A stretch of 64,000 nt of DNA, from contig CAZSKS010000001.1 of NCBI GenBank assembly GCA_964607465.1, positions 44,420-108,419 of the forward strand, in the 5' to 3' direction. Numbering within the stretch: position 1 is the stretch's first letter; every line of letters starts with the position of its first letter. The notes below the pieces were generated by a model. That model made no database searches. It was not told where the DNA came from and saw only the letters and a program-made list of their open reading frames with translations. This stretch comes from an uncultured Gemmatimonadota bacterium (lineage in GTDB: Bacteria > Gemmatimonadota > Gemmatimonadetes > Palauibacterales > Palauibacteraceae). The position numbers and the translations under genes were made by a program. Shown here one piece after another: positions 15,221 through 47,608 of the stretch.

Positions 15221-15248
15221 CGACGCCCGGCCGGCCGCCGGGGGGCTG

Positions 15249-16977: not shown

Positions 16978-16983
16978 ACCTCC

Positions 16984-19244: not shown

Positions 19245-19804
19245 TCATCGAGAGCATCTTCACGACGCGCGACGCCGAGGGGAACCTGAACTTCTCGCCC
19301 ATGGGCGTCGTGTGGGGCGAGGAGGAGATCGTCGTGAAGCCCTACAAGGAGACCTCCACCTACCCCAACCTGGTGGAGACCGGCCAGGCCGTGGTCAACA
19401 TCACCGACGACGTCCGGCTGTTCGCCCGGGGAGCCATCGGGAAGCCGACGTTCCCGTGGTCCGAGGCCCGGGTCGTCGACGGTGCCGTCGTGGACGCCGC
19501 CTGCTCCTGGCGGGAGCTGGAGGTCGTGGAGGTGGACGACTCGGAGGAGCGGGCGCGGATCCGCACCCGCGTCGTCCACCGGGAGGTCCGCCGGGAGTTC
19601 GTGGGCTTCAACCGTGCGCGGGCCGCGGTGATCGAGGCCGCCATCCTGGCCACCCGGACCCGCTTCCTGCCCATGGAGGAAATCCTCGAAGACTTCGACC
19701 GTCTCCAGACCATCGTGGACAAGACCGGGAGTCCCGTGGAGCACGAGGCGTTCGACCACCTGGCGGGCTACGTGGAGGCCGAGGCCGCGACGTCCGGGGA
19801 ATGA
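19241..19804 (+). CDS. DUF447-like protein (putative flavin-binding split barrel) of methanopterin islands
   Basis: MIIESIFTTRDAEGNLNFSPMGV...NITDDVRLFARGA...FVGFNRARAAVIEAAILATR. ATGA overlap with the preceding gene. The family call is from memory. Confidence 0.7.
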   Translation: MIIESIFTTRDAEGNLNFSPMGVVWGEEEIVVKPYKETSTYPNLVETGQAVVNITDDVRLFARGAIGKPTFPWSEARVVDGAVVDAACSWRELEVVEVDDSEERARIRTRVVHREVRREFVGFNRARAAVIEAAILATRTRFLPMEEILEDFDRLQTIVDKTGSPVEHEAFDHLAGYVEAEAATSGE

Positions 19805-27847: not shown

Positions 27848-27882
27848 CCCGGGCTCCTTCCTGGTTCGTTGGCATCGTCTCG

Positions 27883-28857
27883 TCATCGGTTCGCCCCGTC
27901 CTCCCGGTCCTCCTCCAGGGGGGTGGTGCGGATGGCCCGCAGCCGGTCGCCGGGACTCAGCCGACCGTCCCCCGTCTCGTCCTCGTAGAGCACCGCCAGG
28001 GCCACGCGCTCCCCGTCGCCCGCCAGCACGAAGATCCCGTCGTCGGCGCGGGGACCGCCGTCCAGGTCGGCGCAGCAGCGATCCAGCTGGCGGACGCCGT
28101 GCGACGACCCGTTCGGAGCCCGCGGCGCGGGCTCGCCGTCCACGACCGTCCGGAGCAGATCGCCCTCGGAGAAGCTCCCCGTCCCGTCCCGGTCCTCGTA
28201 GATCCAGAAGCTGACGACGGCCTCGCCCTGCCCCGCCACGACGCGCACGCCGTCGTCGGCGGGCCCCCCGCCGTCGTAGTCCAGGCAGCAGAAGTCCCGG
28301 AGCACCGCCGGTCCCCGCGCCGAGGCGAAGCGGGCCGCCCCCGGGACGGGGCTCCGGCAGGCGAGCCGATCTCCCTCTCGGCCGCAGCGCAGCCCGCGAC
28401 CCTCCGTCTCCCCGAGCCCCGACACGCCGGTTCCCAGCGCCAGCACCCGTGCGTCCGGCCCCCACCGGAGGGCGAACCGCTGCTCCGTCTCCGCCTGCGG
28501 CCCCGCTTCCGGCGCCGCCGTCCGGGCGGGCGCCGCCCCGTCGCCCCCACCCCCGGGGCCGGCCCGCGCCAGGAGCCCGACGGCCGCGATCAGGACGAGC
28601 ACGGCGGCGGCGCGGACGGCGTCCCGCGGGGCCGCCCGACGGCGGAACCACGAGCGCCGATCCCCGGCCCGGGTTCCGGCCTCCCGGTCCTCTCGGGGCA
28701 GGGCCTCCAGCACCTCGGCCTCGAGCCCCGACCGGGGGGGATCGAAGCGGGCTCGACGGAGCCGCTCATCGATTTCGCGCAGCTCCGGAGGGAGCCCACC
28801 CTCGGGCCCCTCCGACGTCCCGTCGCCGCCGTCTCCCGGCCGTCCGTCCTCGGTCAT
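27883..28857 (-). CDS. membrane-anchored anti-sigma factor candidate with duplicated periplasmic CC/EF-hand-like module
   Basis: It lies downstream of the ECF sigma gene on the same strand. It has an acidic cytoplasmic N-terminus, one TM helix (AVRAAAVLVLIAAVGLLA) and a periplasmic region containing two copies of a roughly 57-aa module. The start is ATG 28857 (SD GAGG) or GTG 28902. Confidence 0.6.
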   Translation of the reverse strand: MTEDGRPGDGGDGTSEGPEGGLPPELREIDERLRRARFDPPRSGLEAEVLEALPREDREAGTRAGDRRSWFRRRAAPRDAVRAAAVLVLIAAVGLLARAGPGGGGDGAAPARTAAPEAGPQAETEQRFALRWGPDARVLALGTGVSGLGETEGRGLRCGREGDRLACRSPVPGAARFASARGPAVLRDFCCLDYDGGGPADDGVRVVAGQGEAVVSFWIYEDRDGTGSFSEGDLLRTVVDGEPAPRAPNGSSHGVRQLDRCCADLDGGPRADDGIFVLAGDGERVALAVLYEDETGDGRLSPGDRLRAIRTTPLEEDREDGANR

Positions 28858-29721: not shown

Positions 29722-30300
29722 TCATCCCGTGGGCAGGAGCCAGCGATGCAGCGCGGCGACCGCACGGGGGAGGATGACGTCGCGCTGGCCCTTCAGCTCG
29801 ATGGCCTCCTGGCCCACGACCTTCCCCGAGGCCACGTCCTCGTGCTCCACCACGAGGTACCAGATCAGGTTGCTCACCTTGATGACTCGACCCCTGAAGA
29901 CGTGCTCCACGCCGGCGGAGCGCGCGGCCTCCCGGGCGCAGGCTCCGCTGTCGCAGCCGGTGCTTCCGGACCGGACCCGGGACCGGGCTTCTTCGAACTG
30001 CTCCATCGTCACCAGCGTGAACCGCCCGTCGTCCTGAAGGCGCTCCCGGAGCATGCGGGCCGCGTCGATGGCCACCCGGGTGATCTCCTCCCCCTCCTCG
30101 TCCGGGTTGACGCTCTTGTCCAGGGTCTGGAAGTCCAGCACCAGCACCTTCTGTCGATCGGCCGGATCGGGGGACCCGTCCGTCGATGCCGGAGCCTGCT
30201 GACCCGTGGCCGGGACCGGCACGGACGCCAGGGTCAGGAGGATGCCTACGGAGAAGACGGCCTGGGGGATCGAACGCACGGCGAACCGGGAGAGCTTCAT
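29722..30300 (-). CDS. secreted protein of unknown function (DUF3280/DUF2380-like by memory)
   Basis: Signal peptide MKLSRFAVRSIPQAVFSVGILLTLASVPVPATGQQ, then VLVLDFQTLDKS..., GCDSGACAREAARSAGVEHVFRGRVIKVSNLIWYLVVEHEDVASGKVV. It is the first gene of the sigma/anti-sigma/TBDR-1 string. Confidence 0.6.
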   Translation of the reverse strand: MKLSRFAVRSIPQAVFSVGILLTLASVPVPATGQQAPASTDGSPDPADRQKVLVLDFQTLDKSVNPDEEGEEITRVAIDAARMLRERLQDDGRFTLVTMEQFEEARSRVRSGSTGCDSGACAREAARSAGVEHVFRGRVIKVSNLIWYLVVEHEDVASGKVVGQEAIELKGQRDVILPRAVAALHRWLLPTG

Positions 30301-30398: not shown

Positions 30399-30494
30399 TC
30401 GTTGGTGGGGGACGGCCAGCCGTCCTCCGCGCGGCGGAGTCGCCCTGTGTCGCACAGCCAGCTTTCGAACACGACGAGAGCAGGAGAACGGAAA

Positions 30495-32669
30495 GTGCTT
30501 CGACCCCACCGAGCCTTCCATCGTCGACAGGTATCTACCCTTCCCGACCGCGATGGGTTCGGGAGCCCGGTCCGCACCGTTGCCACGGCCCTGGTGGCGG
30601 TGGTGACGGCGGCGCTCGCCGGGGCCTGGGTCGCCCCCCTGGAGGCCCAGCAGGAGGACCTCCCGGCGGCCGACACCGTCACGCTGGAGGAGCTGACGGT
30701 GACGGTGACCCGGGTCGAGACGGAGATCCAGCGGGCCCCGGAGACGGTCTCGGTGCTGGGCGCGGAGACCGTGACGCAGGGGGAGCGGGGGGTCTCCCTG
30801 GAGGAGGCGCTCCGCCACGTGCCGGGCGTCTACGTCCAGAACCGGAGGAACTTCTCCCTCGGCGACCGGGTGACCGTGCGGGGCGTGGGAGCCAGGGCCC
30901 AGTTCGGCGTCCGCGGGGTCCAGATCCTCATGGACGGGATCCCGCTCACCATGCCCGACGGCCAGGCCGTCGTCGATCCCGTGGACCTGAACGCGGTGGG
31001 ACGCGTGGAGATCATCCGGGGTCCGGCCTCCACCCTGTACGGCAACGCGGCCGGGGGGGTCATCAGCTATCAGACCCGGGATCCGTGGCGCGGATCGTTC
31101 CGGACCGAGCCCGACGTGAGCTTCGGGAGCCATGGCTACCAGAAGTCCGTGATCGGAGCCTCGGGCACCTCGGGCGATCTCGGATGGCGGCTCTCGGCCC
31201 AGCGTATGGAGACCGACGGCTTCCGGCGGAACGCCGGAGCGGAGGTCTATCACGGCAACCTGGTCACCGACGTCGGGCTCTCCGAGGACACCCGGCTGAC
31301 CGGCATCGTGAACGTCTTCCACACCCCCTTCGCGGAGAATCCGAGCGGGCTTACGCGCAATGACGCCATCGAGAATCCCACGATGGCCCGTGACCTCATC
31401 GTTCAGATGGGGGCCGGCCAGGAGACCACCCACGGACAGGGGGGGCTCGCCCTGGACCACCGCTTCAGCGAGGACCACCGGATGAAGCTCGCCGGCTGGA
31501 TGACGCTGCGGGACATCCGAAACCCCATCCCCTTCCGCATCATCGACCTGGACAGGACCGCGGGCGGCGTCCGCTCCCAGTACGAGGGAAGCACCCGCAT
31601 GGGCGACGTTCCGGTCCGGTGGGCGACGGGCGTGGACGTCGGAATCCAGAGCGACGACCGAAGGGAGTTCGTGAACGAGCAGATCGGGTCGGGCGACCGG
31701 GCCCGGGCCGGTGACCTGCTGCTGGACCAGCGGGAGCGGGTGACGAGCTTCGGCCCCTTCGCGCGGATCGACCTGGATCTCCTGCCACGATGGCGTCTCA
31801 CGCTGGGGGGACGCTACGATCGCTTCGAGTTCGACATCGAGGACCGCTTTCTCGAGGACGGGGACGACTCCGGCGACCGCACGCTGGAGGAGTTCAGCCC
31901 CATGGTCGGGCTGACCTATTCCCCCCATTCGGCCCTGAGCATCTACGGCAACTACGCGACCTCCTTCGAGACCCCCACCGCCAGCGAGTTCTCCAACCGG
32001 CCGGACGGCAGCGGCGGGCTCAACCCCGAGCTCGGCGCCGCGGACACCGACAGCTACGAGCTCGGCGTGAAGGGGTGGTCCGAAGAGGCGGGCATCCAGT
32101 ACGGGCTCGCCGTCTACACGGCCGACGTGAGCGGCGCCCTGGTCCCCTTCTCCGATCCCACGGAGCAGATCTTCTTCCGCAACGCCGGCGAGATCTCCCG
32201 TACGGGCGTCGAGACCAGCCTGGCTTGGAGGCCGACGTCCTCCCTCCAGTGGCGGCTCTCCCATACGTACCAGGACTCCGAGTTCGAGGAGTTCACGCCG
32301 GAGGGCGAGGACTTCAGCGGGAACCGCGAGCCCGGCGTGCCCGAGCATCAGCTCACCGCGGGGGTCAGCTACACGGCGCCCTTCGGGCTCACCTCGGAGG
32401 CGGACGTCCGTTGGGTGGACGCCTATCCCGTGAACGACGCCAACACCGCCTCCAACTGGGCCCACAGGATCGTGGACTTCCGCTTCTCCATGGACCGGCC
32501 GATCGACCTGGGGAGGACCGGCCTGCACCCCTTCCTGGGGATCGACAACGTCTTCGACGAGCGCTACAACGCCGGGGTGACCCCCAACGCGTTCGGGGGT
32601 CGGTTCTACGAGCCCGCTCCCGGCACCACGGTGTACGGCGGCCTGTCGGTCTCCCTCTCCTACCGCTGA
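30495..32669 (+). CDS. TonB-dependent receptor (TBDR-2)
   Basis: Signal peptide (...VATALVAVVTAALAGAWVAPLEAQQ) and plug (VTVTRVETEIQRAPETVSVL..., QILMDGIPLTMPDGQAVVDPVDLNAVGRVEIIRGPASTLYGNAAGGVISYQT). GTG 30495 with an upstream GGAGAA was chosen; the ORF opens at 30402. Confidence 0.88.
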   Translation: MLRPHRAFHRRQVSTLPDRDGFGSPVRTVATALVAVVTAALAGAWVAPLEAQQEDLPAADTVTLEELTVTVTRVETEIQRAPETVSVLGAETVTQGERGVSLEEALRHVPGVYVQNRRNFSLGDRVTVRGVGARAQFGVRGVQILMDGIPLTMPDGQAVVDPVDLNAVGRVEIIRGPASTLYGNAAGGVISYQTRDPWRGSFRTEPDVSFGSHGYQKSVIGASGTSGDLGWRLSAQRMETDGFRRNAGAEVYHGNLVTDVGLSEDTRLTGIVNVFHTPFAENPSGLTRNDAIENPTMARDLIVQMGAGQETTHGQGGLALDHRFSEDHRMKLAGWMTLRDIRNPIPFRIIDLDRTAGGVRSQYEGSTRMGDVPVRWATGVDVGIQSDDRREFVNEQIGSGDRARAGDLLLDQRERVTSFGPFARIDLDLLPRWRLTLGGRYDRFEFDIEDRFLEDGDDSGDRTLEEFSPMVGLTYSPHSALSIYGNYATSFETPTASEFSNRPDGSGGLNPELGAADTDSYELGVKGWSEEAGIQYGLAVYTADVSGALVPFSDPTEQIFFRNAGEISRTGVETSLAWRPTSSLQWRLSHTYQDSEFEEFTPEGEDFSGNREPGVPEHQLTAGVSYTAPFGLTSEADVRWVDAYPVNDANTASNWAHRIVDFRFSMDRPIDLGRTGLHPFLGIDNVFDERYNAGVTPNAFGGRFYEPAPGTTVYGGLSVSLSYR

Positions 32670-33488: not shown

Positions 33489-34499
33489 CTACGGGCCGCC
33501 CGCTTCGGTCCCAACGGCGGGCCCCGGCGTGATGGCCACCCCCCAGGGGAGCTCGCCCACCGGGATCCTGGCGACCTCCTCCAGCGACTCCGTGTCGATC
33601 ACCGACACGTCGCCGCTCTGCCCGTTGGCGGAGTAGAGCCGGCTGCCGTCGGGCGTCAGGTCGATGCCCCAGGGACGCTGGCCCACCGCCACCTCGGCCA
33701 CCGTCTCCAGCGACTCGGTGTCGAAGACGACGACCCGGTCCGCCTCCCCGTCGGCCACGTACACGCGGGCTCCGTCCGGCGAGACGACGACCCCCACCGG
33801 CTTCGCGGACTGCCCCCCCTCGCCCACCAGCAGGGTCTCGACGACCTCGTGGCTCTCCACGTCCACCACCGACAGGTCGCCGCCGACCTCGCCGGACACG
33901 TAGGCGCGGGAGCCGTCCGGGGAGAAGGCCACCCCGCGCGGCCGGTTGCCCACCCGGAAGCTGCCGGCCGTCTCCCGGTTCTCGGTGTCGATGACGGTGA
34001 TGGTGTGGCTGCTCTCCGAGGTGACGTAGACCCACCGGCCGTCCGGGCTCACGCCCACCCCCTCGGGCTCGATGCCCACCTCGTAGGTCTCCGTCACCTC
34101 GCCGCTGGCGATGTCGATGGACGAGGCGGTGCCCACGTCCTCGTTGGAGACGTAGATCGTGCTGCCGTCGGGGCTCACCGCGAACTGCTCGGGGTCCGAG
34201 CCGGCGTCGATCTTCTTGAGCACCTCGTTGGTGGCCACGTCGATGACGGCGATGGCGTCCTCGTTGCTGACCGCCACGTAGATGCGGTCTCCGTCGGGGC
34301 CGGCCTGGATGCCCCGCGGCCGGTCACCCGCCGGGACCGTGGCCACCACCTCCTCGGTCACCGTGGAGATCACGCTCACGTCGTCGCCCGCCTCGTTGCT
34401 GACGTAGGCCAGCGGACCCTCGGGAATCGACTCCCCGCAGCCGAGGAGGAACAGCGATCCGAGCAGCAGCGGGGCGGTCAGCCATCTTCGGAGAGACAT
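33489..34499 (-). CDS. YVTN-repeat beta-propeller lipoprotein (PQQ-dehydrogenase-associated type)
   Basis: Lipobox LFLLGC-G. Six or seven repeats of the P.G...SPDG...YV.N.....V.VID type, and the C-terminal PWGVAI typical of the propeller genes found next to quinoprotein dehydrogenases. SD GAGGTGA precedes ATG 34499. Confidence 0.85.
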   Translation of the reverse strand: MSLRRWLTAPLLLGSLFLLGCGESIPEGPLAYVSNEAGDDVSVISTVTEEVVATVPAGDRPRGIQAGPDGDRIYVAVSNEDAIAVIDVATNEVLKKIDAGSDPEQFAVSPDGSTIYVSNEDVGTASSIDIASGEVTETYEVGIEPEGVGVSPDGRWVYVTSESSHTITVIDTENRETAGSFRVGNRPRGVAFSPDGSRAYVSGEVGGDLSVVDVESHEVVETLLVGEGGQSAKPVGVVVSPDGARVYVADGEADRVVVFDTESLETVAEVAVGQRPWGIDLTPDGSRLYSANGQSGDVSVIDTESLEEVARIPVGELPWGVAITPGPAVGTEAGGP

Positions 34500-34607
34500 C
34501 GTCGTCACCTCGTCGTCGAAGGTTCGATCTGCGTCATGGACCTCGTGTCCCGAGTTCCGGGAGACCGCACGGATCCGCTCCCGTGAGCGGGAACGGCCGG
34601 GCCCGCG

Positions 34608-35975
34608 TCAGGCGGTCGCCTCTCCCGCGCTACCGAGGCGGCAGCCCGCCTCGTCGCGGGTGCGTCCGAGCATCCCGAGGCGGTCGACCAGCTCCTGGGA
34701 GACGAACTGGTCGTCCGCGGTCACGGGCCGACCGATCACCTGGTAGGGGTCCGCCACCGAGTCGCCCACCGACGGGTGGAGCACGTACATGCCCTGGCCC
34801 ATCTGGTGGTTCCAGGGGCGGAAGGAGAGGGGGGGACCCTTGTAGCCGTCGAAGGCCACCTCCTGCTCCAGGCGCTCCACCAGGCCCCGGCCCTCCTCCC
34901 GGGGCGGCGACACCAGGAGGTCGCCCAGAAGCTTGACCGCCGTCCAGTTGGCCCAGCCCTGCGGTCCCATGGGCCGGTCGAAGGCCTCCCGGTAGCGGTT
35001 GTTCAGCTCGCGGGCCCCGAACCGGAACAGGCCGGAGTGCCACAGGCTGGGCCAGAACGCCGCCGGGGACGCTTCGTCCCCGTACCGCAGGGCGTCGGCG
35101 AAGGGGAGCGCCAGGTCTGCGCCGGAACCCTCCTCGCGATGGACCTCCAGGAGTCGGACGAGCCGCTCCCCCTTCACGATGCCCAGCACGGCCCACGGAT
35201 CGCCGGCGAGCGCCTCCCGGAGCGCCCCGGCCGGGTCCCCCTGCTCCGGATCGATCTCCGTGCTGCCCAGCAGCTCGCCACCGGCCCGCTCCAGCGTAGC
35301 CCGGGCACGGTCGTGCAGCCGGCGTCCCTGGGACGTGCCCTCGTACAGGACGTGCCAGCGCCACAGCTCCTGCCGCTGACCGATGAAGTTCACCAGCCCC
35401 TGCCTCGCCCGCCGCACGAGCCAGTGGACCGTGGCGTCCACGTACATGGTCTCGCTGGCCTGGACGTGGAACGTGGAGGGGGAGCACGCCTCCCCCCGGA
35501 AGCGGTCGGCGTCGGAGCCGACGTTCAGGAAGGGCACGCCCAGACGATCGGCCGCCTCCATGAGGACCGCGCACGCCTCGTCCCCGATCCCGCCGACGAC
35601 GGCGGAGGCCCCGCGGTCCACCAGGCGCTCGGCGCCCCGCACGGCCTCGTCCGGCGTGTCGGCGGTCTCCTCCAGGAGCTCGAAGGATCGATCCAGCAGC
35701 CGGGCTGCCCGTCCGGCGTCCTGCGCGCCCAGCCGGGCGCCCCGCAGCGCCGCGCGGCCCATGCCCCCCATCGGTCCGTCGCTCGGCGCCACGTGGCCGA
35801 CACGGATGGGGGCCTCCTGGGTCCCCGCGTCGATGCCCGCGAGGAGCTCCCGCGCGGTTCCCTCCCGGCCGACCAGGGCGCGGGCTCCCGGCAGGAAGAA
35901 GAGGGCGGACGTCGCCCCGGCCGCCGCCAGGAAGCGGCGACGGCTGAGGAGCGAGCCGGGCCTATCCTCCCTCAT
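34608..35975 (-). CDS. LivK-like periplasmic substrate-binding protein with Tat signal (PQQ-dehydrogenase-associated type)
   Basis: Tat-type signal SRRRFLAAAGATSALFFLPGARA, then IRVGHV.P..G..G......GA.LG... and a type-I periplasmic binding-protein pattern. No permease or ATPase genes are adjacent. Confidence 0.8.
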   Translation of the reverse strand: MREDRPGSLLSRRRFLAAAGATSALFFLPGARALVGREGTARELLAGIDAGTQEAPIRVGHVAPSDGPMGGMGRAALRGARLGAQDAGRAARLLDRSFELLEETADTPDEAVRGAERLVDRGASAVVGGIGDEACAVLMEAADRLGVPFLNVGSDADRFRGEACSPSTFHVQASETMYVDATVHWLVRRARQGLVNFIGQRQELWRWHVLYEGTSQGRRLHDRARATLERAGGELLGSTEIDPEQGDPAGALREALAGDPWAVLGIVKGERLVRLLEVHREEGSGADLALPFADALRYGDEASPAAFWPSLWHSGLFRFGARELNNRYREAFDRPMGPQGWANWTAVKLLGDLLVSPPREEGRGLVERLEQEVAFDGYKGPPLSFRPWNHQMGQGMYVLHPSVGDSVADPYQVIGRPVTADDQFVSQELVDRLGMLGRTRDEAGCRLGSAGEATA

Positions 35976-36810
35976 CGTCGTCCCACCGCGCCCGGTCCAC
36001 GTTCTCCGCCTCTTCCAGGCCACGGATCTCCTCCCGCCCCTTGATCGAGCGCAGGTCCGCTCCCGCCAGGTCCGCCCCCTCGAGGCGGACGCCGGAGAGG
36101 TCGGCCATCCACAGGTCCGCTCCCGAGAGGTCCGCACCCCGGAGGTCGCCCCGGACGAGGATCGCCTTCCGGAGGTTGGCGTCCGTCAGCCTCACGTTCC
36201 GGAGGTCGGCCCCGGTGAAGTTGGTGTTCATCAGGCCCATGGGCTGGTTCCCGGGATCGGCCCCGAGGTTCGCGCCGGAGAGATCCGCCCCCGTCAGCGT
36301 CGAGCCCTCGCCCGCGACGATGAGGCGCGCACCCGACAGGTTCGCCTCCGTCAGGTCGGCCTTGCGGAGGATCACCGCGTACAGGCTGGCGCCCGACAGG
36401 TCCGCCCCTCGCAGCACGACCTCGCTCAGGTTGGCCTTGTCGAGGTTGGCGTCGGAGAGGCCGGCGCCCGTGAGGTCGGCTCCGGTGAGATCCGCCCCGA
36501 ACAGGCGGGCCTCCGTCAGGTCCGCCTCCCGGAGGCGGGCGCCGGAGAGGTCGGCATGGGTGAAGTCGAGCCCCGACAGGTCGAGGCCGGAGAGGTCGAG
36601 CCCCGACAGGTCGGCGGCCTCGTTCCCGGCCGTCGCCGCGAGCCGCTCCCGGACCTCCGAGGCCGACATGTCCTGGCCGGCCAGGGCGCCCGGCCCGCCG
36701 ACGGCCGTGAGGAGCCCGGCGAGCAGCGCCCCTGCGACCGCGCCTCCACCCGCCCCCCGGCGGCGGGACCGCCGGGAGGCGACCTCGACCGGCCCGGGGC
36801 CCTGGTTCAC
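35962..36810 (-). CDS. pentapeptide-repeat protein with N-terminal export-like signal
   Basis: More than 30 consecutive A(D/N)LxG-type pentapeptides (ADLSGLDLSGLDLSGLDFTHADLSGARLREADLTEARLFGADLTGADLTGAGLSDANL...). The N-terminus is VNQGPGPVEVASRRSRRRGAGGGAVAGALLAGLLTAVGGPGALAGQD. GTG 36810 is 1 nt after the upstream stop, and the 3' end overlaps the next gene by 14 nt. Confidence 0.8.
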   Translation of the reverse strand: MNQGPGPVEVASRRSRRRGAGGGAVAGALLAGLLTAVGGPGALAGQDMSASEVRERLAATAGNEAADLSGLDLSGLDLSGLDFTHADLSGARLREADLTEARLFGADLTGADLTGAGLSDANLDKANLSEVVLRGADLSGASLYAVILRKADLTEANLSGARLIVAGEGSTLTGADLSGANLGADPGNQPMGLMNTNFTGADLRNVRLTDANLRKAILVRGDLRGADLSGADLWMADLSGVRLEGADLAGADLRSIKGREEIRGLEEAENVDRARWDDDEGG

Positions 36811-36811
36811 G

Positions 36812-38422
36812 CTACCCGTCCCGGCAGTGCGTGGCGCTGTCGACGACCGCCGCTTCGGCCCGATCGGCCCCGGGGTCCGTCGGCTCCGTGGCGGGCTCGT
36901 CGCGCTCCGACGGGGCCTCGTCACCCTCCTGCGCGGTCCGGTCCTCCTCCTGGCCCTCGTCTCCCTCGGCACCGTTCCCGTCCTCCTCGGACGGGGCCTC
37001 GTCGGCCGGCGGCGCCTCGGGTCGGCCGGCGGGCAGGCCCTCCGTCCGGGCCGCGATGTACTCGTAGATGGCGTTGGCCTTCTCGTCGTCGAGCAGCGCG
37101 TTCCAGGCCGGCATCCCCTTGTCGGGCCGCCCCTGCATGACCGTGATCGTGAAGCTGTCCTGCGTGAACCCCTCCCGGTTCACGGCCTGCAGCAGGCCCG
37201 GGGCGATGGTCGACCCCGTGCCCGCCTCGCCGTGGCAGCGGACGCAGTGGACCATGAACTGACGCCAGCCCGTGTAGACCGTCTCGCTCACCGGCGTGTC
37301 CTGCGCCGTCGCGGGCGGGGCGTGGACGAGATCGGCCGGGGAGACCGCCGCCAGCGCGCCGCCGGCGGACGGTGCCGGAGAGCCGCCCCGGGACGCCACC
37401 TCCGCCCGCGGACCGCCTCCCGCGCCGTAGGGGCTGCCGAGAGAGGCGGCGGGACCGGTGCTCCCCCGGGTGCTCTCCCGGCGCCCGTCGTCCCCGCCGG
37501 AGGCGTCCTGTCCTCCGCGCTCGATGGGCAGGAGGGGGACGTGGAATTCCTCCTCCAGGATGCGGTAGATCTCCTCCTGGTTCTCCTCGATGACCCTCTC
37601 GAGCCGGGCCTGCCACTCCCCCTCACCGCGGCGGACCCCCAGGGACATGTTGTAGGCCAGGGGGAAGCCCGTGCTGTCGTCCACCGCCGGCAGGGCCTTC
37701 ATCTCGAGTGCGACGTCCTGGCGCTGGCTCCAGTAGCCGGCCACCGGCCCCCACACGATGGCCAGCTCCACGTCACCGTTGGCCACCGCGTACACGATCT
37801 CCTTCGGCGGGCTGTCCTCGTCGTAGTCGCCGTAGACCGTGAAGCCCTTGACGTTGCTCACGATCCCCCGGGCTCCCAGCGCGTGGGCCGGCGGGGGGTT
37901 CATGTAGTCGTCCCCGATCAGGTTCACGCCGATCTGCAGGTCCCGCAGGACGGGATCGTCGAGGGAGCTCACCTCGAAATCGGCGTCGGCCCGGTAGAGG
38001 AAGACGTAGGGCGAGCGGTAGAACGGCGCGGTGGACTGGAGGATGTCGTAGCCCTCGGGCACGCCGAAGATGACGTCGCACTTGTTCTCCTTCAGCGTGT
38101 TGCGGACGAAGCCGCGGTGCTGCCGCCACCAGGTGTAGCTGACGGAGGAGAGCCCCATCTCCTCGGCGAACAACTCGGCCAGCCGGTTGTGGAATCCTTC
38201 CTCCGCCCGGTTGGAGAACGGCAGGTTGTTCGGGTCGGCGCAGACCCGCAGCTCGTCCGCCTCCTGGAGCGCCGTCGCGTTCGCGTCCGGCGTCGTCTCG
38301 GCCGCCTCGGCTGGCAGGTGCGCTCCCTGCTCCGGCATCTGTGCCACGCCCAGCCCGGAGACGATCCCCAGGACGAGGACGGCGACTCCGGCGTACAGCT
38401 TATCTCCCATGGTCGTCACCAT
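36812..38422 (-). CDS. XoxJ/MxaJ-like periplasmic binding protein fused to a C-terminal monohaem c-type cytochrome and an acidic tail
   Basis: The N-terminal domain (LRVCADPNNLPFSNRAEEGFHNRLAELFAEEMG...YTWWRQHRGFVRNTLKENKCDVIFGVPEGYD...APFYRSPYVFLY) is MoxJ-like. A roughly 75-aa Gly/Ser/Ala linker follows, then CVRCH (Cys codon 37246-37244) and KGMPAW (Met ligand), then a roughly 65-aa D/E-rich tail. It is one uninterrupted frame. The start is ATG 38422 or 38410. Confidence 0.8.
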   Translation of the reverse strand: MVTTMGDKLYAGVAVLVLGIVSGLGVAQMPEQGAHLPAEAAETTPDANATALQEADELRVCADPNNLPFSNRAEEGFHNRLAELFAEEMGLSSVSYTWWRQHRGFVRNTLKENKCDVIFGVPEGYDILQSTAPFYRSPYVFLYRADADFEVSSLDDPVLRDLQIGVNLIGDDYMNPPPAHALGARGIVSNVKGFTVYGDYDEDSPPKEIVYAVANGDVELAIVWGPVAGYWSQRQDVALEMKALPAVDDSTGFPLAYNMSLGVRRGEGEWQARLERVIEENQEEIYRILEEEFHVPLLPIERGGQDASGGDDGRRESTRGSTGPAASLGSPYGAGGGPRAEVASRGGSPAPSAGGALAAVSPADLVHAPPATAQDTPVSETVYTGWRQFMVHCVRCHGEAGTGSTIAPGLLQAVNREGFTQDSFTITVMQGRPDKGMPAWNALLDDEKANAIYEYIAARTEGLPAGRPEAPPADEAPSEEDGNGAEGDEGQEEDRTAQEGDEAPSERDEPATEPTDPGADRAEAAVVDSATHCRDG

Positions 38423-38585
38423 CTGCCTCTCGCTCTGCCTGTCGTGGAGTGATCGTGTCGTCATGAAGGTACCCGCTGCGGGCGGGTTTGCTCCGGGATG
38501 TGCCCTCCGCCCGCGGAGGCCGGTCGACCGGCCCCGGCCTTCCTCGCAATAAAGTAGTAGCTGGATGGCGGGCGTGCACACGAAA

Positions 38586-38622
38586 GCCCCCCTCGCCCAC
38601 GTTCGAGTGGCGCGAGAGGGGC
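38586..38622 (-). terminator. hairpin downstream of xoxF (partial terminator candidate)
   Basis: The minus strand has GCCCCUCUCGC, a 15-nt loop, GCGAGGGGGGC, then CUUUCG: an 11-bp stem with one G-U pair. It lies about 70 nt after the xoxF stop. Confidence 0.45.
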
Positions 38623-38694
38623 TCCGTGTGAGCCCTGCCGCCGGTCAGGAGCCGCTGATGGGCCTGCCCTGCCGGCTCAGATGCTCAGCCGCCC

Positions 38695-40557
38695 TCAGCT
38701 GCCGGGCAGCGCGAAGTCCAGCAGGATCCCGGCCTGGTTCACGTGCCGCGCCAGGTCGCCGAACGCGCCCAGCGCACCCAGTCCGGCCGTGGGATCTTCG
38801 GGCCCGATGCCCGCGGCCACGCCGATGCCGGCCCAGCCGCCGATGCCCGAGAGGATCGCCACGTGCTGCTTGCCGTCAGGCCCGATGTACGTCATCGGGT
38901 TCCCGATGAAGCCGGACGGCGCCTTGAACCGCCAGAGCGTCGTGCCGTTCTTGGCGTCCACGGCCTTGAACCAGCCGTCGAGCGTCCCGTAGAAGACCAG
39001 GCCGCCGGCGGTGGCCAGCGTGCCGCCGTAGGTGCCGACCGGCTCCTGGATCTCCCACTTGATGGTGCCGGTGGTGGCGTCCCAGGCGATGAGCCGCCCG
39101 CGGAAGCCGCCCTTGCCCGGATACATCCGGACGATGGCGCCCACGTACGGCTGACCGGCCGCGTACTGCACCTCCACACCCTCGTAGTCCATGCAGATGT
39201 TGTTGGCGGGGATGTAGAAGAGCTTGGTCTGATGCGAGTACGAGATCGGCTGCTGGTCCTTGTAGCCGATCGCGGCCGGGCAGATGCCCTCGGTGTTCTG
39301 GCCGGCGCTCGTGCCGTACTGCGGGTTCTTCATCGGCCGGCCGGACTCCATGTCGACACCGTCCGCCCAGTTGATGGGACCGTAGGGCTCGGCCACCAGC
39401 AGCTCGCCGGTCGTCCGGTCCATCGTGTAGGCGATGCCGTTCCGGTCCATGTGGACCAGCGTCTGCCGCATCTGGCCGTTGATCTCCTGGTCCACCAGCA
39501 CGGCCTCGTTGACCCCGTCGTAGTCCCACTCGTCGTGGGGCGTCTTCTGGTAGGCCCAGTGCGCGCACCCGGTGTCCGGATCGCGCGCGAACAGGGTCAT
39601 CGACCAGAGGTTGTCGCCGGGGCGCTGGTCCGGGTTCCAGGTGCCCGGGTTCCCGGTGCCGTAGTAGAAGAGGTCCAGCTCCGGGTCGTAGCTGTACCAG
39701 CCCCAGGTCGTGCCGCCGCCGCGCTGCCACTCGTCGGACGCCGGCTCCCTCCAGGTCGTCACGCCGAGGTCCTCGCCCCGCATCCAGTCGTAGGGGGCCT
39801 CGAACGTGTCGTCGCAGAGGAGCACGTCCTCGTCGGGACCGGTGCTGTAGGCGCGCCAGACCCGCTCGCCGCTCTCGACGTTGTAGGCGGTGACGTGGCC
39901 GCGGACGCCGAACTCACCGCCCGAGATGCCGGCGATGACCTTGTCCTTCACCACCAGCGGGGCGTTGGTCATCGTCTCGCCCTCGGTGTAGTCACCGTTC
40001 TGGACCTTCCAGAGGCGCTCGCCCGTCTCGGCGTCCAGCGCCAGCAGGTGACCGTCGAGGAGCTGGATGAAGAGCTTGCCGCTCGGATGCCAGGCAAGTC
40101 CCCGGTTCACCACGTCGCAGCAGGCGACCGGGATGACCTCCTCGGGCTGATCCGGTACGTAGGACCAGATGATCGGGTTCCCCGCCTGCGACAGGTCCAG
40201 CGCGTAGACCTTGTTGGGGAACGGCGTGTGGACGTACATGACGTCGTCGATCACCAGCGGCTCGCCCTCGTGCCCCCGCAGCTCTCCGGTGGAGAACGTC
40301 CAGCTGACCTGGAGCTTCTCCACGTTGTCGCGGTTGATCCGAGACAGCGGGCTCCACCGCTGCAGATCGTAGGTCCGCCCCGTGTGCACCCACTGCCCGG
40401 GGTTGTCGAACCTCATCTCGAAGGCCGCGGTCGGGTCCTGCTCGACCTGGGCCGCCGCGCTGTCTGGGGTTCCGATCGCTAGGAGAGCTAAGAAGAGGAA
40501 GGAAAGGAAGGCGGGTCCGGAGCAACGTCGACACCAGCGTGGCCATCGGCTACTCAT
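38695..40557 (-). CDS. xoxF: PQQ-dependent methanol dehydrogenase, XoxF (lanthanide) type
   Basis: Eight-bladed PQQ propeller motifs, a vicinal disulfide (PVACCDVVNRG) and PHDEWDYDGVNE, where the D-Y-D (39525-39517) carries the extra Asp that distinguishes XoxF from MxaF. Signal peptide ...FLALLAIGTPDSAAAQ. SD GGAGG lies 6 nt before ATG 40557. Confidence 0.95.
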   Translation of the reverse strand: MSSRWPRWCRRCSGPAFLSFLFLALLAIGTPDSAAAQVEQDPTAAFEMRFDNPGQWVHTGRTYDLQRWSPLSRINRDNVEKLQVSWTFSTGELRGHEGEPLVIDDVMYVHTPFPNKVYALDLSQAGNPIIWSYVPDQPEEVIPVACCDVVNRGLAWHPSGKLFIQLLDGHLLALDAETGERLWKVQNGDYTEGETMTNAPLVVKDKVIAGISGGEFGVRGHVTAYNVESGERVWRAYSTGPDEDVLLCDDTFEAPYDWMRGEDLGVTTWREPASDEWQRGGGTTWGWYSYDPELDLFYYGTGNPGTWNPDQRPGDNLWSMTLFARDPDTGCAHWAYQKTPHDEWDYDGVNEAVLVDQEINGQMRQTLVHMDRNGIAYTMDRTTGELLVAEPYGPINWADGVDMESGRPMKNPQYGTSAGQNTEGICPAAIGYKDQQPISYSHQTKLFYIPANNICMDYEGVEVQYAAGQPYVGAIVRMYPGKGGFRGRLIAWDATTGTIKWEIQEPVGTYGGTLATAGGLVFYGTLDGWFKAVDAKNGTTLWRFKAPSGFIGNPMTYIGPDGKQHVAILSGIGGWAGIGVAAGIGPEDPTAGLGALGAFGDLARHVNQAGILLDFALPGS

Positions 40558-40845
40558 GAGGGTCCTCCGGCAAAAGTTCGAGGATCGTGAGACCAGGAGA
40601 GCCCACCCCTCCCGTCCGTCTCCGACCGGCATGTGTCAAACATACCGTACGATCGTGCGGCTGACGAGCCGTCCCGACGCACCGCCCGAGTCGCCGTACG
40701 GAACCGCGGATCGGTCCGCCGCCGCTTTCACCAGCCGAGGACCGGCTGGCTTCAATCTGATCGAAAGCGTAATGATGGGGTCGAGAGATGTCAACGGCGC
40801 AGCGTTCCGCCGGACGGCCGGCCACGGAAAGGTCGACGAGATACG

Positions 40846-42393
40846 ATGACCCGCGTTCCCCTGGTGCGGGATCTGGAACCGCGGCTGGAGCCCCCGGTCG
40901 CGGCACGCCGGGCCGCGTCCCTGCCCTACACGCTCTGGCTCGACAGCGCCCTCCGGCATGGGGAGATCGGACGGTACACTTTCCTGGCCGTGGACCCCTT
41001 CCTGGTGCTCCGCTCCCGCCGGGGCCGGGCGGAGATCCTCGGGCCGGGAGGCTGGCGGACGGGCGAGGTCCCGCCGCTGGCGGAGCTGGAGCGGCTGCTG
41101 GCCGACTTTCGGCTCCCCGGGACGTCGGCCGACGTCCCCTTCCAGGGGGGTGCCGCGGGATACTTCGGGTACGAGCTGGGACGCCAGCTCGAGACGCTGC
41201 CGCGGACGCGGTGGCGGGAGCCGGAGCTCCCCGAGATGGAGATCGCCTTCTACGACGTGGTGCTCGGGTGGGACCACCTCGAGGGGCGGAGCTGGCTGGT
41301 GTCCACCGGCCGTCCGGACGCCGGAGCGGCGGCGCGGCGTCGCGCCAGGGAGCGGGCGCGCACGGTCGAGGCCTGGCTGGCGGGCGGCGACCGACCCCGG
41401 CTGCAGCTCCCCCATGACGACGCGCCGACCCGACCGACACGTTCCGGCGTGCCGGACGACCCCGGACCGAACGGGGCGTCCGGGCGCGGGCCGGAGTCCG
41501 GGCCGCCCTCCTTCCCCGTGCCGTGCCGGCCCGACCTCCGCTCCACCTTCAGCCCCGGAGGCTACGAGGAGGCGGTCGAGCGGGCCGTGGAGTACATCCT
41601 GGCCGGCGACGTCTTCCAGGTGAACCTGTCGCAACGCTTCCGCGCACCGCGGGAGGAGCCGGGCTTCGAGCTGTACCGACGCCTCCGGCGGCGCAACGCC
41701 GCCCCCTTCGCCGCCTTCATGACCACGGCCTCCTGCAGCCTGGCCAGCGCGTCGCCCGAGCGGTTCCTGAAGGTGACCCCGGAGGGCGTCGTGGAGACCC
41801 GCCCCATCAAGGGCACGCGGCCGCGCTCCCGACATCCGGCCCATGACATGTACCTGGAGCGGGAGCTGGAGGAGAGCGGGAAGGACCGGGCCGAGAACCT
41901 GATGATCGTCGACCTCCTCCGGAACGACCTCTCCCGGGTGTGTCGTCCGGAGAGCGTCAGCGTCCCGCGCCTCTTCAAGAAGGAGAGCTACGCCACGGTC
42001 CACCACCTGGTCTCTATCGTCACCGGACGGCTCGAGGCGGATCGGGGGCGGGTCGATCTCCTACGGGCGGCCTTCCCCGGCGGGTCGGTGACGGGCGCAC
42101 CCAAGATCCGGGCGATGGAGATCATCGCCGAGCTGGAGCCCGTGCCCCGGGGGCCCTACTGCGGCGCCGTCGGCTACCTCGGCTTCGACGGATCCATGGA
42201 CACCAGCATCACGATCCGGACGCTGGTCGGCGCCGGGGGCGACCTCTTCTTCCACGCCGGAGGGGCCGTGGTGGCCGACTCCGATCCCCGGCGCGAATAC
42301 CTCGAGACCCTGGACAAGGCCGAGGGGATGATCCGGGCCCTGCCGGGGGACGACGGGGACGCCCGTCAGCCGCGCTCCGTCCTCACGAGGTAG
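40846..42393 (+). CDS. pabB: aminodeoxychorismate synthase component I (PabB; TrpE/PabB family)
   Basis: GDVFQVNLSQRF..., SASPERFLKV...VETRPIKGTRPR, ENLMIVDLLRNDLSRVC, FPGGSVTGAPKIRAMEII..LE...RGPYCGAVGYLG are the chorismate-binding family core. PabB is preferred over TrpE because of context (pABA is an H4MPT precursor). Confidence 0.8.
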   Translation: MTRVPLVRDLEPRLEPPVAARRAASLPYTLWLDSALRHGEIGRYTFLAVDPFLVLRSRRGRAEILGPGGWRTGEVPPLAELERLLADFRLPGTSADVPFQGGAAGYFGYELGRQLETLPRTRWREPELPEMEIAFYDVVLGWDHLEGRSWLVSTGRPDAGAAARRRARERARTVEAWLAGGDRPRLQLPHDDAPTRPTRSGVPDDPGPNGASGRGPESGPPSFPVPCRPDLRSTFSPGGYEEAVERAVEYILAGDVFQVNLSQRFRAPREEPGFELYRRLRRRNAAPFAAFMTTASCSLASASPERFLKVTPEGVVETRPIKGTRPRSRHPAHDMYLERELEESGKDRAENLMIVDLLRNDLSRVCRPESVSVPRLFKKESYATVHHLVSIVTGRLEADRGRVDLLRAAFPGGSVTGAPKIRAMEIIAELEPVPRGPYCGAVGYLGFDGSMDTSITIRTLVGAGGDLFFHAGGAVVADSDPRREYLETLDKAEGMIRALPGDDGDARQPRSVLTR

Positions 42394-45329: not shown

Positions 45330-46097
45330 TCAGCCGGGGGCCGGGCGGGGCGTCGACGCCCCATCCACGGCGTGGCGGACGGCCCGGCTGCGGCGGGCTT
45401 CCAGCCGTCCCTGCCGGCCGCCGGCGCAGGCGCCGCCGCGCACGCCCACCACGTCGAGACCCATGCCCGCGAGCCGCGGGATCGAGGTCGCGTCCAGGCC
45501 GCCGGCGACGGCGGTCTCGAGACCCAGGCTCCGGGCCGACGCGGCCCATCGCTCCAGGCGGCGGGCGCCCAGGATCTCCGGCGTGGAGGGACCGTCCTTG
45601 GAGAGGGTGTCCAGCATGACCGCGTCGGCCCCGTGTCGCCGGGCCAGCGGCACGAGCTTCTCCGGCGAGGGGGCGCGGCCGGGCGGGGCGTCGGCGAAGG
45701 TCACGGCGACGAGGCGGGCGCCCGATCCGGCGGCGCCGATCGTCCGGGCCAGGGCCTCGAGGCTCCGGCGGTTCCCGTCGCGCTCGCGGGCCACGGACGC
45801 CGGGTCCCCGGCGGCGGTATCCGGTCCGGCGGCCAGGCCGAGCTTGAGGTAGGCCGGACCGTGGACGAGGGCGGCGCGGGCCACCGGAACCACCTCCTCC
45901 GGCCGGTGCGGACCGTCGCCCAGGGGCAGGCTCACCGGACATCGCCCGGTGCACCGCCGGGCCACCTCCGCCAGGAGCCCGGGGGACGGAGGGCCGAGGG
46001 AGCCCCGCGCCGGGTCCTTCACGTCCACCAGGTCGGCTCCGGCCGCGAGGGCGGTGTCGACCTCCGATCGGCGGACCACGGTGAGGAGCAGCTTCAT
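45330..46097 (-). CDS. mfnB: (5-formylfuran-3-yl)methyl phosphate synthase (methanofuran biosynthesis, DUF556 family)
   Basis: MKLLLTVVRRSEVDTALAAGADLVDVKDPARGSLGP... and the C-terminal ...GLDVVGVRGGAC match the MfnB pattern. SD GAGGGA. The ORF track start (46280) is rejected. Confidence 0.8.
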   Translation of the reverse strand: MKLLLTVVRRSEVDTALAAGADLVDVKDPARGSLGPPSPGLLAEVARRCTGRCPVSLPLGDGPHRPEEVVPVARAALVHGPAYLKLGLAAGPDTAAGDPASVARERDGNRRSLEALARTIGAAGSGARLVAVTFADAPPGRAPSPEKLVPLARRHGADAVMLDTLSKDGPSTPEILGARRLERWAASARSLGLETAVAGGLDATSIPRLAGMGLDVVGVRGGACAGGRQGRLEARRSRAVRHAVDGASTPRPAPG

Positions 46098-46246
46098 CGT
46101 TCCCTCGGCGGGCTCGGACGGGATCGCCGGGCGGGTCCGGCTCGTCCGGCAAGCGTACGGCCCGATCCGGGCGCGGGCCAGCCGTCGTCGCGGGTGGCCG
46201 ACCCGAGCATCGCCGTCCGAGACGGTCGGAAGGACCGGGAGCGAGG

Positions 46247-47608
46247 ATGAGCTCCGAGCGATCCGCCGGCCGCCGGGCACGATCGCCGTCCGACGCCGGC
46301 GACGGGCCCGCGCGTCTCGACGTCCGGACGCTGCTCACGGGCGTCGCCGTCCGCCCGCTGGCTCAGTCGGCGCGCCGGGCGGGGATCGACGCCGCCAGCG
46401 TGGACCTGTTCGGCGACCGGGACCACCGCCGGGCGCTGCCGGTCCTCTTCCTCGGGCGCGCCGGGGCCGACGGCTACGCGGCCGCGGACCTGGTTCGCCT
46501 CTCCCGCCGGGTGACGGCGGACGAGGTCGCCTACGGCGCCGACCTGGAGAACCATCCCCGGCTGGTGGCCGAGCTGTCCGAGGGTCGCCGGCTCCTGGGC
46601 AACCCGCCCCGGGTGCTCCGGAGGGTCCGCGATCCCTCCCGGCTGGAGGCCAGCCTCCGCGAGGGCGGGCTGCCCGCGCCGGAGGTCCGCCGCCACGGCG
46701 ATCCCCTCCCGTCCGGCGGGGAGGACGCCGGATGGCTGAGGAAGCCCCTGCACGGGGGCGGTGGCCGGGGGGTGCGGCCCTGGCGACCCGGCGAGGCGGT
46801 GGACGAGGCGGACTACCTCCAGCGGCGTGTCCGGGGGGCGCCCGTCAGCCTGGCGTTCCTCGCCGACGGACGCTCCGGCCGCCTCCTGGCCGTCACCGAG
46901 ATGCTCGTCGGACGCCCCGCCTTCGGGGCGGAGGGATTCACCTACTGTGGAAGCCTCCTCGGCGTCGGCGGGGGAGACCGCCCCGCCCCGCCACCGGGTC
47001 CCGCCGGCGAGGTCCCGTGGGCGACGGCCCGGCGGGTCGTCCAGCGCCTGAGCGCCGCCTTCGAGCTCCGGGGCCTGAACGGTCTCGACGCCGTATTCGA
47101 CGGGAAGACGCTCTGGCCCGTGGAGGTGAACCCGCGCTGGACCGCCTCGATGGAGCTCCTGGAGCCGGGGCCCTGGGACGGCGACCCCGCCGGACCGACC
47201 CTCTTCGAGCTGCACCGCCGGGCCTGCGGCGGCGACCTGCCGGCGGAGACCGAGCTGCGGGAGATCCGGATCGCCCGCCGGTGGTCCTCGCTGGCGGCCA
47301 CGGGAGCCGCGGGGCCGGGCGCAGGAGCCGGGGAGCCTGGCGGTGACGGGAAGCGGCGGGGTCGGGCGGACGGGGCGAGGGTGGTGGGAAAGGCCATCCT
47401 CCGGGCGCCGACCGCCGTCCGGACGCCGGACCTGGGGACGCTGGACGGCATCGTCGTGGTGGACGTGCCGGACACCGGCGAGGAGGTGCCGGCCGGCGCC
47501 CCGGTGTGCACGATCCTGGCCGCGGGCCGGGACCGGGCGGCCTGCCTCGACCGCCTGGCGGCCTCCGCGACCAGGATCCGAAGCGTCCTCGAGCCGCGGG
47601 AAGGGTGA
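46247..47608 (+). CDS. ATP-grasp superfamily enzyme (predicted carboligase type), methanofuran/H4MPT-island associated
   Basis: WLRKPLHGGGGRGV..., YLQRRVRGAPVSLAFLADG..., RGLNGLDAVFDGKTLWPVEVNPRWTASMEL show the ATP-grasp core. It is divergent from mfnB. Confidence 0.7.
   Translation: MSSERSAGRRARSPSDAGDGPARLDVRTLLTGVAVRPLAQSARRAGIDAASVDLFGDRDHRRALPVLFLGRAGADGYAAADLVRLSRRVTADEVAYGADLENHPRLVAELSEGRRLLGNPPRVLRRVRDPSRLEASLREGGLPAPEVRRHGDPLPSGGEDAGWLRKPLHGGGGRGVRPWRPGEAVDEADYLQRRVRGAPVSLAFLADGRSGRLLAVTEMLVGRPAFGAEGFTYCGSLLGVGGGDRPAPPPGPAGEVPWATARRVVQRLSAAFELRGLNGLDAVFDGKTLWPVEVNPRWTASMELLEPGPWDGDPAGPTLFELHRRACGGDLPAETELREIRIARRWSSLAATGAAGPGAGAGEPGGDGKRRGRADGARVVGKAILRAPTAVRTPDLGTLDGIVVVDVPDTGEEVPAGAPVCTILAAGRDRAACLDRLAASATRIRSVLEPREG

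Follow-up and report, generated by a model that had tools for sequence, protein, structure and literature searches.

A XoxJ-type protein fused to a monohaem cytochrome c in the xox operon of an uncultured Gemmatimonadota bacterium

In a stretch of 64,000 nucleotides from contig CAZSKS010000001.1 of an uncultured Gemmatimonadota bacterium, subsequently referred to as the window, the gene directly downstream of xoxF encodes a XoxJ-type periplasmic binding protein and a monohaem cytochrome c in a single reading frame (36812..38422, minus strand). The fusion is real and conserved, both of its domains are under purifying selection, and the cytochrome occupies the XoxG position. It is, in our judgement, somewhat probable that the protein joins XoxJ to a stand-in for XoxG on a flexible tether, and that it arose by the joining of adjacent genes.

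The complete coding sequence consists of 536 codons and a TAG stop at 36812-36814. The longest version of the open reading frame (ORF) is 36812..38581 (minus strand) and an alternative start is found at ATG 38464; the version from ATG 38422 is the form present in public protein sets (P0001 in NCBI-derived data, 100% identical). From the N-terminus, the protein comprises a signal peptide, a XoxJ/MoxJ_2 domain, a disordered linker, a monohaem class-I cytochrome c and an acidic tail, so that the ORF, the family scans and the identical P0001 agree with the single four-part frame proposed in a preliminary description of this DNA. An AlphaFold2 model based on 66 homologues showed two confident domains, with a predicted local distance difference test (pLDDT) score below 50 in segments 304-372 and 484-536. 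The sole export signal is a signal peptide or signal anchor at residues 1-28 (MVTTMGDKLYAGVAVLVLGIVSGLGVAQ; 38339..38422, minus strand), which forms the strongest hydrophobic segment of the protein and is presumably cleaved. A scan for promoter and terminator consensus sequences found nothing useful close to the gene.

Our search for homologues revealed a CXXCH motif after the XoxJ domain in 57 of the 120 best protein clusters, and in 74 of the 137 retrieved homologues once extra cluster members were added. The fused homologues range from 377 to 537 aa and stem from NCBI, JGI, ENA and Logan data; a cultured isolate, Limnochorda pilosa, also has the fusion architecture (WP_082725894.1). On a syntenic JGI contig (L081) the protein is 91% identical, and all indels between the two are multiples of three. 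Relative to L081, the XoxJ domain has a ratio of nonsynonymous to synonymous substitutions (dN/dS) of 0.08 and the cytochrome one of 0.23, which places both globular domains under purifying selection in a shared frame. The fusion is thus a genuine single gene that has been kept across many independent assemblies and phyla. The rarity that the preliminary description had implied for it is contradicted by its presence in 57 of the 120 best clusters, and a XoxG:XoxJ fusion has already been characterised in Methylacidiphilum (PMC6688271, PMC8498564). Three open frames in the GC-rich linker would hide a frame error, but a sequencing or assembly artefact, in which a collapsed stop or a frameshift merged two genes, is effectively refuted by the same single ORF in independent NCBI, JGI, ENA and Logan assemblies and in the isolate genome, by the in-frame indels relative to L081 and by the one frame that both flanking domains share. 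In the databases, the fused proteins are labelled just 'putative ABC transporter substrate-binding protein'.

The linker itself (residues 303-372; 37307..37516, minus strand) is a disordered stretch of about 70 aa, rich in Gly, Ala, Ser and Pro, with a pLDDT below 50. It had been described as free of stop codons and of a signal peptide and as containing one in-frame GTG, all of which matches the sequence. However, all three frames are open through this GC-rich region, so the absence of a stop is weak evidence when taken alone and the case rests on the comparative data. Among the fusion homologues, the linker is of low complexity and varies in length from about 10 to 110 aa; relative to L081 it has a dN/dS of 0.92 and an in-frame indel. 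Judged by these comparisons, it evolves almost neutrally, the frame being kept open and the sequence otherwise unconstrained. Its best 11-residue hydrophobicity is 1.6, compared with 2.9 for the N-terminal signal peptide, which indicates that there is no internal signal peptide. An internal translation start at the GTG was considered and rejected: P0002 has Met and P0121 has Ile at this position, the GTG is not followed by a hydrophobic signal segment, and a product that is not exported could not gain haem in the periplasm. A separately exported internal product is therefore unlikely, the linker having no hydrophobic core and the GTG not being conserved as a start. At the beginning of the cytochrome domain, a conserved (A/R)(Q/R)D(T/S) motif aligns with AQE in L048 and with ALAQD in L067, which belong to the signal-peptidase region of these stand-alone homologues. 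We did not adopt the view that the linker is a fossil signal peptide; just this short N-terminal motif of the cytochrome aligns with the stand-alone cleavage region, which is suggestive and not a demonstration.

The first domain (residues 55-302; 37517..38260, minus strand) is predicted with a pLDDT above 90. It matches TIGR03871 (ABC_peri_MoxJ_2) with 270.7 bits against a cutoff of 212.15, over the full length of the profile (positions 1-232 of 232), whereas the score for MoxJ proper (the TIGR03870 equivalog) is 130.6 bits and misses the cutoff of 258.1. The closest solved structure by sequence is XoxJ (6onp, E=4e-43), followed by MxaJ, and the top three Foldseek matches of the AlphaFold2 model of this domain are MxaJ 5sv6, XoxJ 6onp (TMt 0.91, root-mean-square deviation 2.3) and MxaJ 9ism_B. 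Together with the curated cutoff and the fold, the adjacency to a gene for a dehydrogenase of the methanol/ethanol family that uses pyrroloquinoline quinone (PQQ) places the fusion protein in the XoxJ family, and bears out the earlier naming of a MoxJ/XoxJ-like first domain. No second XoxJ-like ORF was found in the 64-kb window.

The second domain (residues 373-470; 37013..37306, minus strand; pLDDT 85-97) matches PF13442 (Cytochrome_CBB3) with 4e-10. Its haem-attachment motif CVRCH (C393, C396 and H397; 37232..37246, minus strand) lies exactly where the preliminary description had put it, and KGMPAW holds Met437 (37112..37114, minus strand). All four residues are invariant across 22 aligned fusions with identities of 40-92% (alignment A1). 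Met437 is the presumed distal haem ligand, as expected from the chemistry of class-I cytochromes c. A six-frame scan of the 64 kb found no other CXXCH in open frames of at least 50 aa, and so no separate cytochrome elsewhere in the window; the statement that the operon has no separate xoxG-like gene holds for the window.

Whether the domain can be called XoxG depends on the criterion. It has a single CXXCH and a distal Met, and it is the sole local cytochrome, encoded in a xox operon beside xoxJ. However, it reaches only 33–37 bits (36.6) with TIGR03874, the model for a methanol-related c-type cytochrome (cutoff 161.75), and has no match to TIGR03872 (cytochrome_MoxG) at E<=1e-3. Scores against solved structures are all weak (44 bits for CcoP, 32 bits for cytochrome c6 and 28 bits for XoxG 6onq). 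Membership in the XoxG/cL or PedF families was rejected, as all scores are under the cutoffs, and the domain lies outside the XoxG/cL family and is only a distant relative of TIGR03874. The equation of the fused cytochrome with XoxG thus stands as regards its place beside xoxJ and fails as regards the TIGR03874 and TIGR03872 family models.

A scan of species-representative genomes returned 80 related loci, in nearly all of which xoxF is located immediately upstream of xoxJ. Eleven of them are fused: L001-L003, seven metagenome-assembled genomes (MAGs) labelled Binatia (L026, L029, L036, L038, L044, L074 and L075), and L033, whose record is labelled Enterobacteriaceae. No other ORF with a CXXCH was detected within about 8 kb of these 11 loci. 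Most unfused loci have a separate cytochrome gene for 135-230 aa that starts no more than a few bases from the xoxJ stop and sometimes overlaps it. Since these relatives place a separate cytochrome gene after xoxJ, the fused domain is the positional equivalent of XoxG. The Gemmatimonadota MAGs L001 and L003 share the gene order of the window (xoxF, xoxJ::cyt, pentapeptide, beta-propeller, DoxX) and have the XoxF proteins closest to that of the window (70% and 68% identity, respectively).

An all-against-all BLAST split the cytochromes of these loci into three types. Type A comprises the fused domains of the window, L001 and L003, and stand-alone proteins with their own signal peptide that follow xoxJ in L048, L067 and L068. 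Binatia-labelled loci have type B, as part of a fusion in L026 and L033 and as a separate gene in L008, L010 and L072; type C occurs in Methylocystis and Acidobacteria. The cL model TIGR03872 is the one closer to types B and C (27-65 bits), and the 'methanol metabolism-related' cytochrome model TIGR03874 is closer to type A (27-56 bits), but no cytochrome of the three types reaches the curated cutoff of either model. Scores between types are at most 37 bits, while the window domain matches other type-A domains with at least 84 bits. In a rough neighbour-joining tree, which is indicative only, the type-A fusions and the type-B fusions have XoxJ domains from different clades. As far as such comparisons can tell, the two unrelated cytochrome types and the different XoxJ clades imply at least two independent fusions of XoxJ with a neighbouring cytochrome.

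A library search with the window cytochrome retrieved stand-alone forms, predicted lipoproteins and proteins with extra C-terminal domains as well as XoxJ-fused ones. Four predicted lipoprotein forms of type A (P0148, P0150, P0162 and P0192, about 45-50% identity) carry the cytochrome on A/S/T/P linkers of about 150 aa, so long flexible tethers seem to be recurrent for this type. Other type-A forms (among P0157, P0161, P0214 and L048:8771-9826) contain a second haem domain or are extended at the C-terminus by about 190 aa. P0140 is a stand-alone cytochrome of 168 aa that is 57% identical to the window domain; its signal peptide and its AAQDTPVV junction resemble the N-terminus and the linker end of P0006-type fusions, and it could be a derivative that has lost the XoxJ domain. 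In many unfused loci of the Acidobacteriota type (L011, L015, L016, L024, L025 and others, about 9-10.5 kb), an ORF of about 350 aa follows the xoxJ-adjacent cytochrome gene and has a C-terminal CXXCH at residues ~265-290. This ORF fits the cytochrome-oxidase genes reported beside xoxF3 (PMC10875860); the window has no such genes.

The role of XoxJ and MxaJ has long been debated, with chaperone, regulator and modulator of the contact between dehydrogenase and cytochrome as the candidates (PMC12997753). As a chaperone, MxaJ takes hold of the 'roof' loop of MxaF, above the PQQ pocket, and opens the pocket for the entry of PQQ; it is displaced by MxaI and released on maturation, after PQQ has been loaded (PMC12276312). 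Binding of the apo-dehydrogenase with PQQ insertion has been shown for MxaJ only, and a conserved insertion mechanism has been suggested for XoxJ (PMC12276312). By homology to MxaJ, XoxJ is best understood as a putative PQQ-insertion chaperone.

In the reading that we favour, one N-terminal signal peptide would export XoxJ, linker and cytochrome together, and haem would be attached in the periplasm. As its homologues suggest, the XoxJ part would serve as a chaperone in the periplasm and bind to the lid that covers the PQQ pocket of the methanol dehydrogenase. The cytochrome domain would replace XoxG, taking electrons singly from the reduced PQQ of XoxF and passing them onward to the respiratory chain. 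The gene would have originated when xoxJ was joined to the cytochrome gene that follows it, and the tether would guarantee 1:1 co-export and probably hold the acceptor near XoxF. Haem loading, the acceptance of electrons from XoxF and any kinetic benefit of the tether are what this reading would predict. An acceptor tethered to XoxJ is a reasonable interpretation because the gene is single and conserved, because it fills the XoxG position and because the window holds no other cytochrome; Fae, Mch, FhcBCD and formate dehydrogenase, all encoded in the window, provide the metabolic setting. Of the earlier proposal that the fusion tethers the acceptor to an activating or docking protein of the methanol dehydrogenase, the tethering stands as reasonable, but a permanent docking is complicated by the chaperone role in PQQ insertion (PMC12276312).

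Several points weigh against this interpretation. The link of this cytochrome type to XoxF is drawn from sequence, and the cytochrome misses the curated cutoffs of both methanol-related families. Our view covers 64 kb, and a separate xoxG could be located elsewhere in the genome. MxaJ keeps the PQQ pocket open and leaves the enzyme when it matures (PMC12276312). Catalysis may therefore not be possible while a J protein is bound to XoxF, and this weakens the step of a permanent tether. The linker is near-neutral and its length varies about tenfold, so that a passive connection fits as well as a tuned tether. Finally, the two genes are kept separate in most lineages. The near-neutral linker and the release of the chaperone argue for a tether that is just tolerated, the repeated fusion for one that benefits electron transfer.

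It is possible, though on the whole unlikely, that the fusion is neutral: the loss of a stop would have joined two co-expressed neighbours whose products each work without the other. XoxJ would assist PQQ insertion as a transient chaperone, the cytochrome would accept electrons from XoxF, and the tether would bring no kinetic or docking advantage. The dN/dS of the linker, its low complexity and its range of about 10 to 110 aa are in line with this explanation, as is the dissociation of MxaJ after PQQ loading (PMC12276312). Moreover, the cytochrome gene abuts or overlaps the xoxJ stop in unfused loci, so that a small mutation would be enough, and most lineages are unfused. However, fusion arose at least twice with different cytochromes, and a third case, in the opposite orientation, is reported from Methylacidiphilum (PMC6688271). 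It has also been retained over deep divergence, between fused proteins that are 40-60% identical. Repeated origin and deep retention suggest some benefit, or at least no cost.

A more doubtful idea goes further than the reading we favour: XoxJ would not be just a transient chaperone of maturation but a lasting member of the electron-transfer complex, an adaptor that sits on XoxF where the PQQ pocket opens and offers it the cytochrome. In a salt-adapted host with an acidic proteome, like the present one, the covalent tether (and perhaps the tail) could replace the salt-sensitive electrostatic docking of other systems. It draws on the joining of J to an acceptor on at least three separate occasions, namely the type-A cytochrome in Gemmatimonadota-like lineages, the cL-like type B in Binatia and Limnochorda and the cGJ of Methylacidiphilum, described as having the reverse order.

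We consider it quite improbable that a single exported chain is later cleaved within the exposed linker, which would release free XoxJ and free cytochrome c. The disordered and unconstrained linker of about 70 aa would allow this, and the N-terminal (A/R)(Q/R)D(T/S) motif of the cytochrome matches the signal-peptidase region of stand-alone homologues. Yet the linker has no hydrophobic core for signal peptidase (1.6 compared with 2.9), the linkers of some homologues measure just 10-20 aa or so, and cGJ of Methylacidiphilum has been described and purified as a fusion protein (PMC8498564; bioRxiv 10.1101/2023.10.26.563981). Even less credible is that the haem domain serves the task of XoxJ, for example by controlling whether PQQ or the active-site disulfide is oxidised or reduced while the cofactor is inserted, with the acceptor encoded elsewhere. 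The cytochrome is outside the XoxG/cL families, XoxJ works at the PQQ pocket (PMC12276312) and just 64 kb of the genome are visible, but unfused homologues are ordinary secreted or lipid-anchored monohaem cytochromes in the XoxG position, and no second cytochrome lies within about 8 kb of the fused loci.

The closest known counterpart is cGJ (XoxG:XoxJ) of Methylacidiphilum fumariolicum SolV and M. kamchatkense Kam1, which, as described in the papers, likewise unites a c-type cytochrome and a XoxJ-type protein in one polypeptide of the xoxF operon. In Methylacidiphilum, cGJ is the demonstrated physiological electron acceptor of XoxF, and its docking is electrostatic and salt-sensitive (PMC8498564; 10.1101/2023.10.26.563981). 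By this description, the two proteins differ in several respects. The cGJ gene is written xoxG:J, contains a truncated XoxJ and is accompanied by a separate full-length xoxJ in the operon (xoxFJG:J; PMC6688271), whereas in the window protein XoxJ is N-terminal and of full length and the window contains no second xoxJ; the order in cGJ is taken from the wording of the papers. The cytochrome of cGJ is described as cL/XoxG-like (PMC8498564), which by description sets it apart from the window cytochrome with its lack of a match to the cL model, and a long linker and an acidic tail do not figure in the description of cGJ. New in the window protein are therefore the full-length J in first place, the non-cL cytochrome, the long linker and the acidic tail, the fusion of a cytochrome with XoxJ being known already. 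Such a fusion has been described as exceptional and confined to Methylacidiphilum (PMC6688271, PMC8170126). The searchable literature on xox genes of Gemmatimonadetes, Acidobacteria and Binatota does not mention a XoxG/J fusion and lists XoxG and XoxJ separately (PMC10875860, PMC8262859).

Other systems share single features with the fusion. Methylorubrum extorquens AM1 has the same two functions beside xoxF, XoxJ (6onp) and XoxG (6onq), and its cytochrome is also a monohaem His/Met protein, but they are encoded by two genes in the order xoxF-G-J, compared with one gene in the order F-J-c in the window. MxaJ of MxaFI (PDB 9ism/9iso, 5sv6) has the same fold as the window J (Foldseek E of about 1e-20 to 1e-22), is also encoded beside the dehydrogenase gene and at present provides the best model for the mechanism of the J domain (PMC12276312). 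In contrast to the MxaJ system, XoxF has no MxaI subunit that would displace J, and MxaJ has no haem domain. Type II quinohaemoprotein alcohol dehydrogenases (1kv9, 1yiq) resemble the window protein in that a linker tethers a class-I cytochrome c acceptor within PQQ-dependent alcohol oxidation; there, the cytochrome is joined to the PQQ enzyme itself, and not to an accessory protein. In the lipoprotein forms P0148, P0150, P0162 and P0192, a homologous cytochrome is carried on a disordered linker whose anchor is a predicted lipid-modified Cys or a signal anchor in place of XoxJ.

The protein ends in an acidic, disordered tail of 66 aa (residues 471-536; 36815..37012, minus strand). It had been described as about half D/E and as suited to electrostatic docking or cation binding, but the actual share is 34% for residues 467-536, which have a net charge of -19, and 40% for the stretch quoted in the preliminary description. 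A long acidic tail is confined to P0001, P0002 and P0121; P0006-P0011 have shorter G/D/E tails and the other homologues have none. The dN/dS of the tail relative to L081 is 0.54, indicating relaxed constraint. Moreover, the 34 predicted proteins of the window are acidic in general (14.0% D+E and 9.3% K+R, about 1-2% Lys, typical isoelectric point about 4.6), so the tail is not exceptional for this organism. Most of these isoelectric points fall between 4.1 and 5.0 at about 70% GC, a halophile-like signature. No EF-hand or lanmodulin-like metal site was seen in the tail by eye, no formal motif search having been made. The suggested docking or cation-binding role is thus unsupported, given a tail that is disordered, under relaxed constraint and limited to the closest relatives in a proteome that is acidic throughout, and the most likely view is that this disordered appendage is specific to the lineage and has no role that depends on its sequence. 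Its extreme C-terminus (AAVVDSATHCRDG; 36815..36853, minus strand), with a lone Cys and a His, is kept in P0002 and P0121: the last 13 residues (AVVDSxTHCRDG) are conserved in the three closest relatives, while the preceding acidic stretch diverges. This segment directly precedes the GTG start of the pentapeptide-repeat gene, which lies 1 nt past the fusion stop.

Upstream of the fusion gene, xoxF (38695..40557, minus strand; likely start ATG 40557) encodes a predicted lanthanide-type PQQ methanol dehydrogenase, with 698.5 bits for TIGR03075 (cutoff 480). Solved XoxF structures (6dam, 4mae, 6oc5) score 705-718 bits and ethanol dehydrogenases about 350 bits. The WDYDG of this protein aligns with 6dam and shows the extra Asp two residues past the catalytic Asp (the DYD motif). 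The xoxF ORF has PQQ-family domains only and contains no CXXCH. The gene ends at 38695 and the fusion gene starts at 38422; the 270-nt gap contains a strong GC-rich hairpin (38579..38624, minus strand; z = -3.35 for the intergenic region) of the form GAGCCCCUCUCGCGCCAC-UCGAAC-GUGGGCGAGGGGGGC, followed by UUUCGUG. This hairpin may be an attenuator or an mRNA-stabilising stem that allows an excess of XoxF over the accessory proteins.

Downstream of the fusion follow three genes on the same strand, for which we use the Ped names of PMC12997753: a PedD-like pentapeptide-repeat protein with its own signal peptide (35962..36810; assigned by family scan and by synteny in L001, L003 and L081), a PedA1-like periplasmic binding protein (Peripla_BP_6, TIGR03863-like in family scans) with a signal of the twin-arginine translocation type (34608..35975), and a PedA2-like beta-propeller of the TIGR03866 family (33489..34508; 305 bits, cutoff 287). 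DoxX and a TonB receptor come next, on the other strand. Two TonB-dependent receptors (25670-28651, minus strand, and 30402-32669, plus strand) flank a DUF3280 protein (29722-30300, minus strand) beside the xox cluster. A TonB receptor adjoining xoxF/xoxJ recurs in L081 and in many related loci and is a candidate for lanthanide uptake.

The window also contains a complete-looking tetrahydromethanopterin/methanofuran island for formaldehyde oxidation (6799-19804 and 40633-42393, plus strand; 45330-46280, minus strand), which comprises Fae, an MtdB-like protein, DUF1464, FhcB, FhcD, FhcC, Mch, DUF447, a PabB-like aminodeoxychorismate synthase and 4-HFC-P synthase (MfnB). A formate dehydrogenase is also encoded. 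Its alpha subunit (3262-6447, minus strand) is interrupted by an in-frame TGA at 5881-5883 (VSNQARI-TGA-HSSTVPGLGT), the context of which resembles the selenocysteine site of FdnG/FdhA-type enzymes; the ORFs 5881-6447 (Fe4S4 domain) and 3262-5868 (molybdopterin domains) probably form a single selenoprotein gene, after which come a 4Fe-4S subunit (2273-3211) and an NrfD-like membrane subunit (1169-2242).

The searchable literature calls the XoxG/J fusion exceptional (PMC8170126), whereas fusions of J with a cytochrome are common in the present data. The database label of a binding protein means that surveys which score a separate xoxG would miss the acceptor in Gemmatimonadota, Binatia and others. 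The repeated fusions of XoxJ with a cytochrome may be regarded as a 'Rosetta stone' signal that both act on the same face of the enzyme, and they offer natural single-chain constructs for asking whether XoxJ joins in electron transfer.

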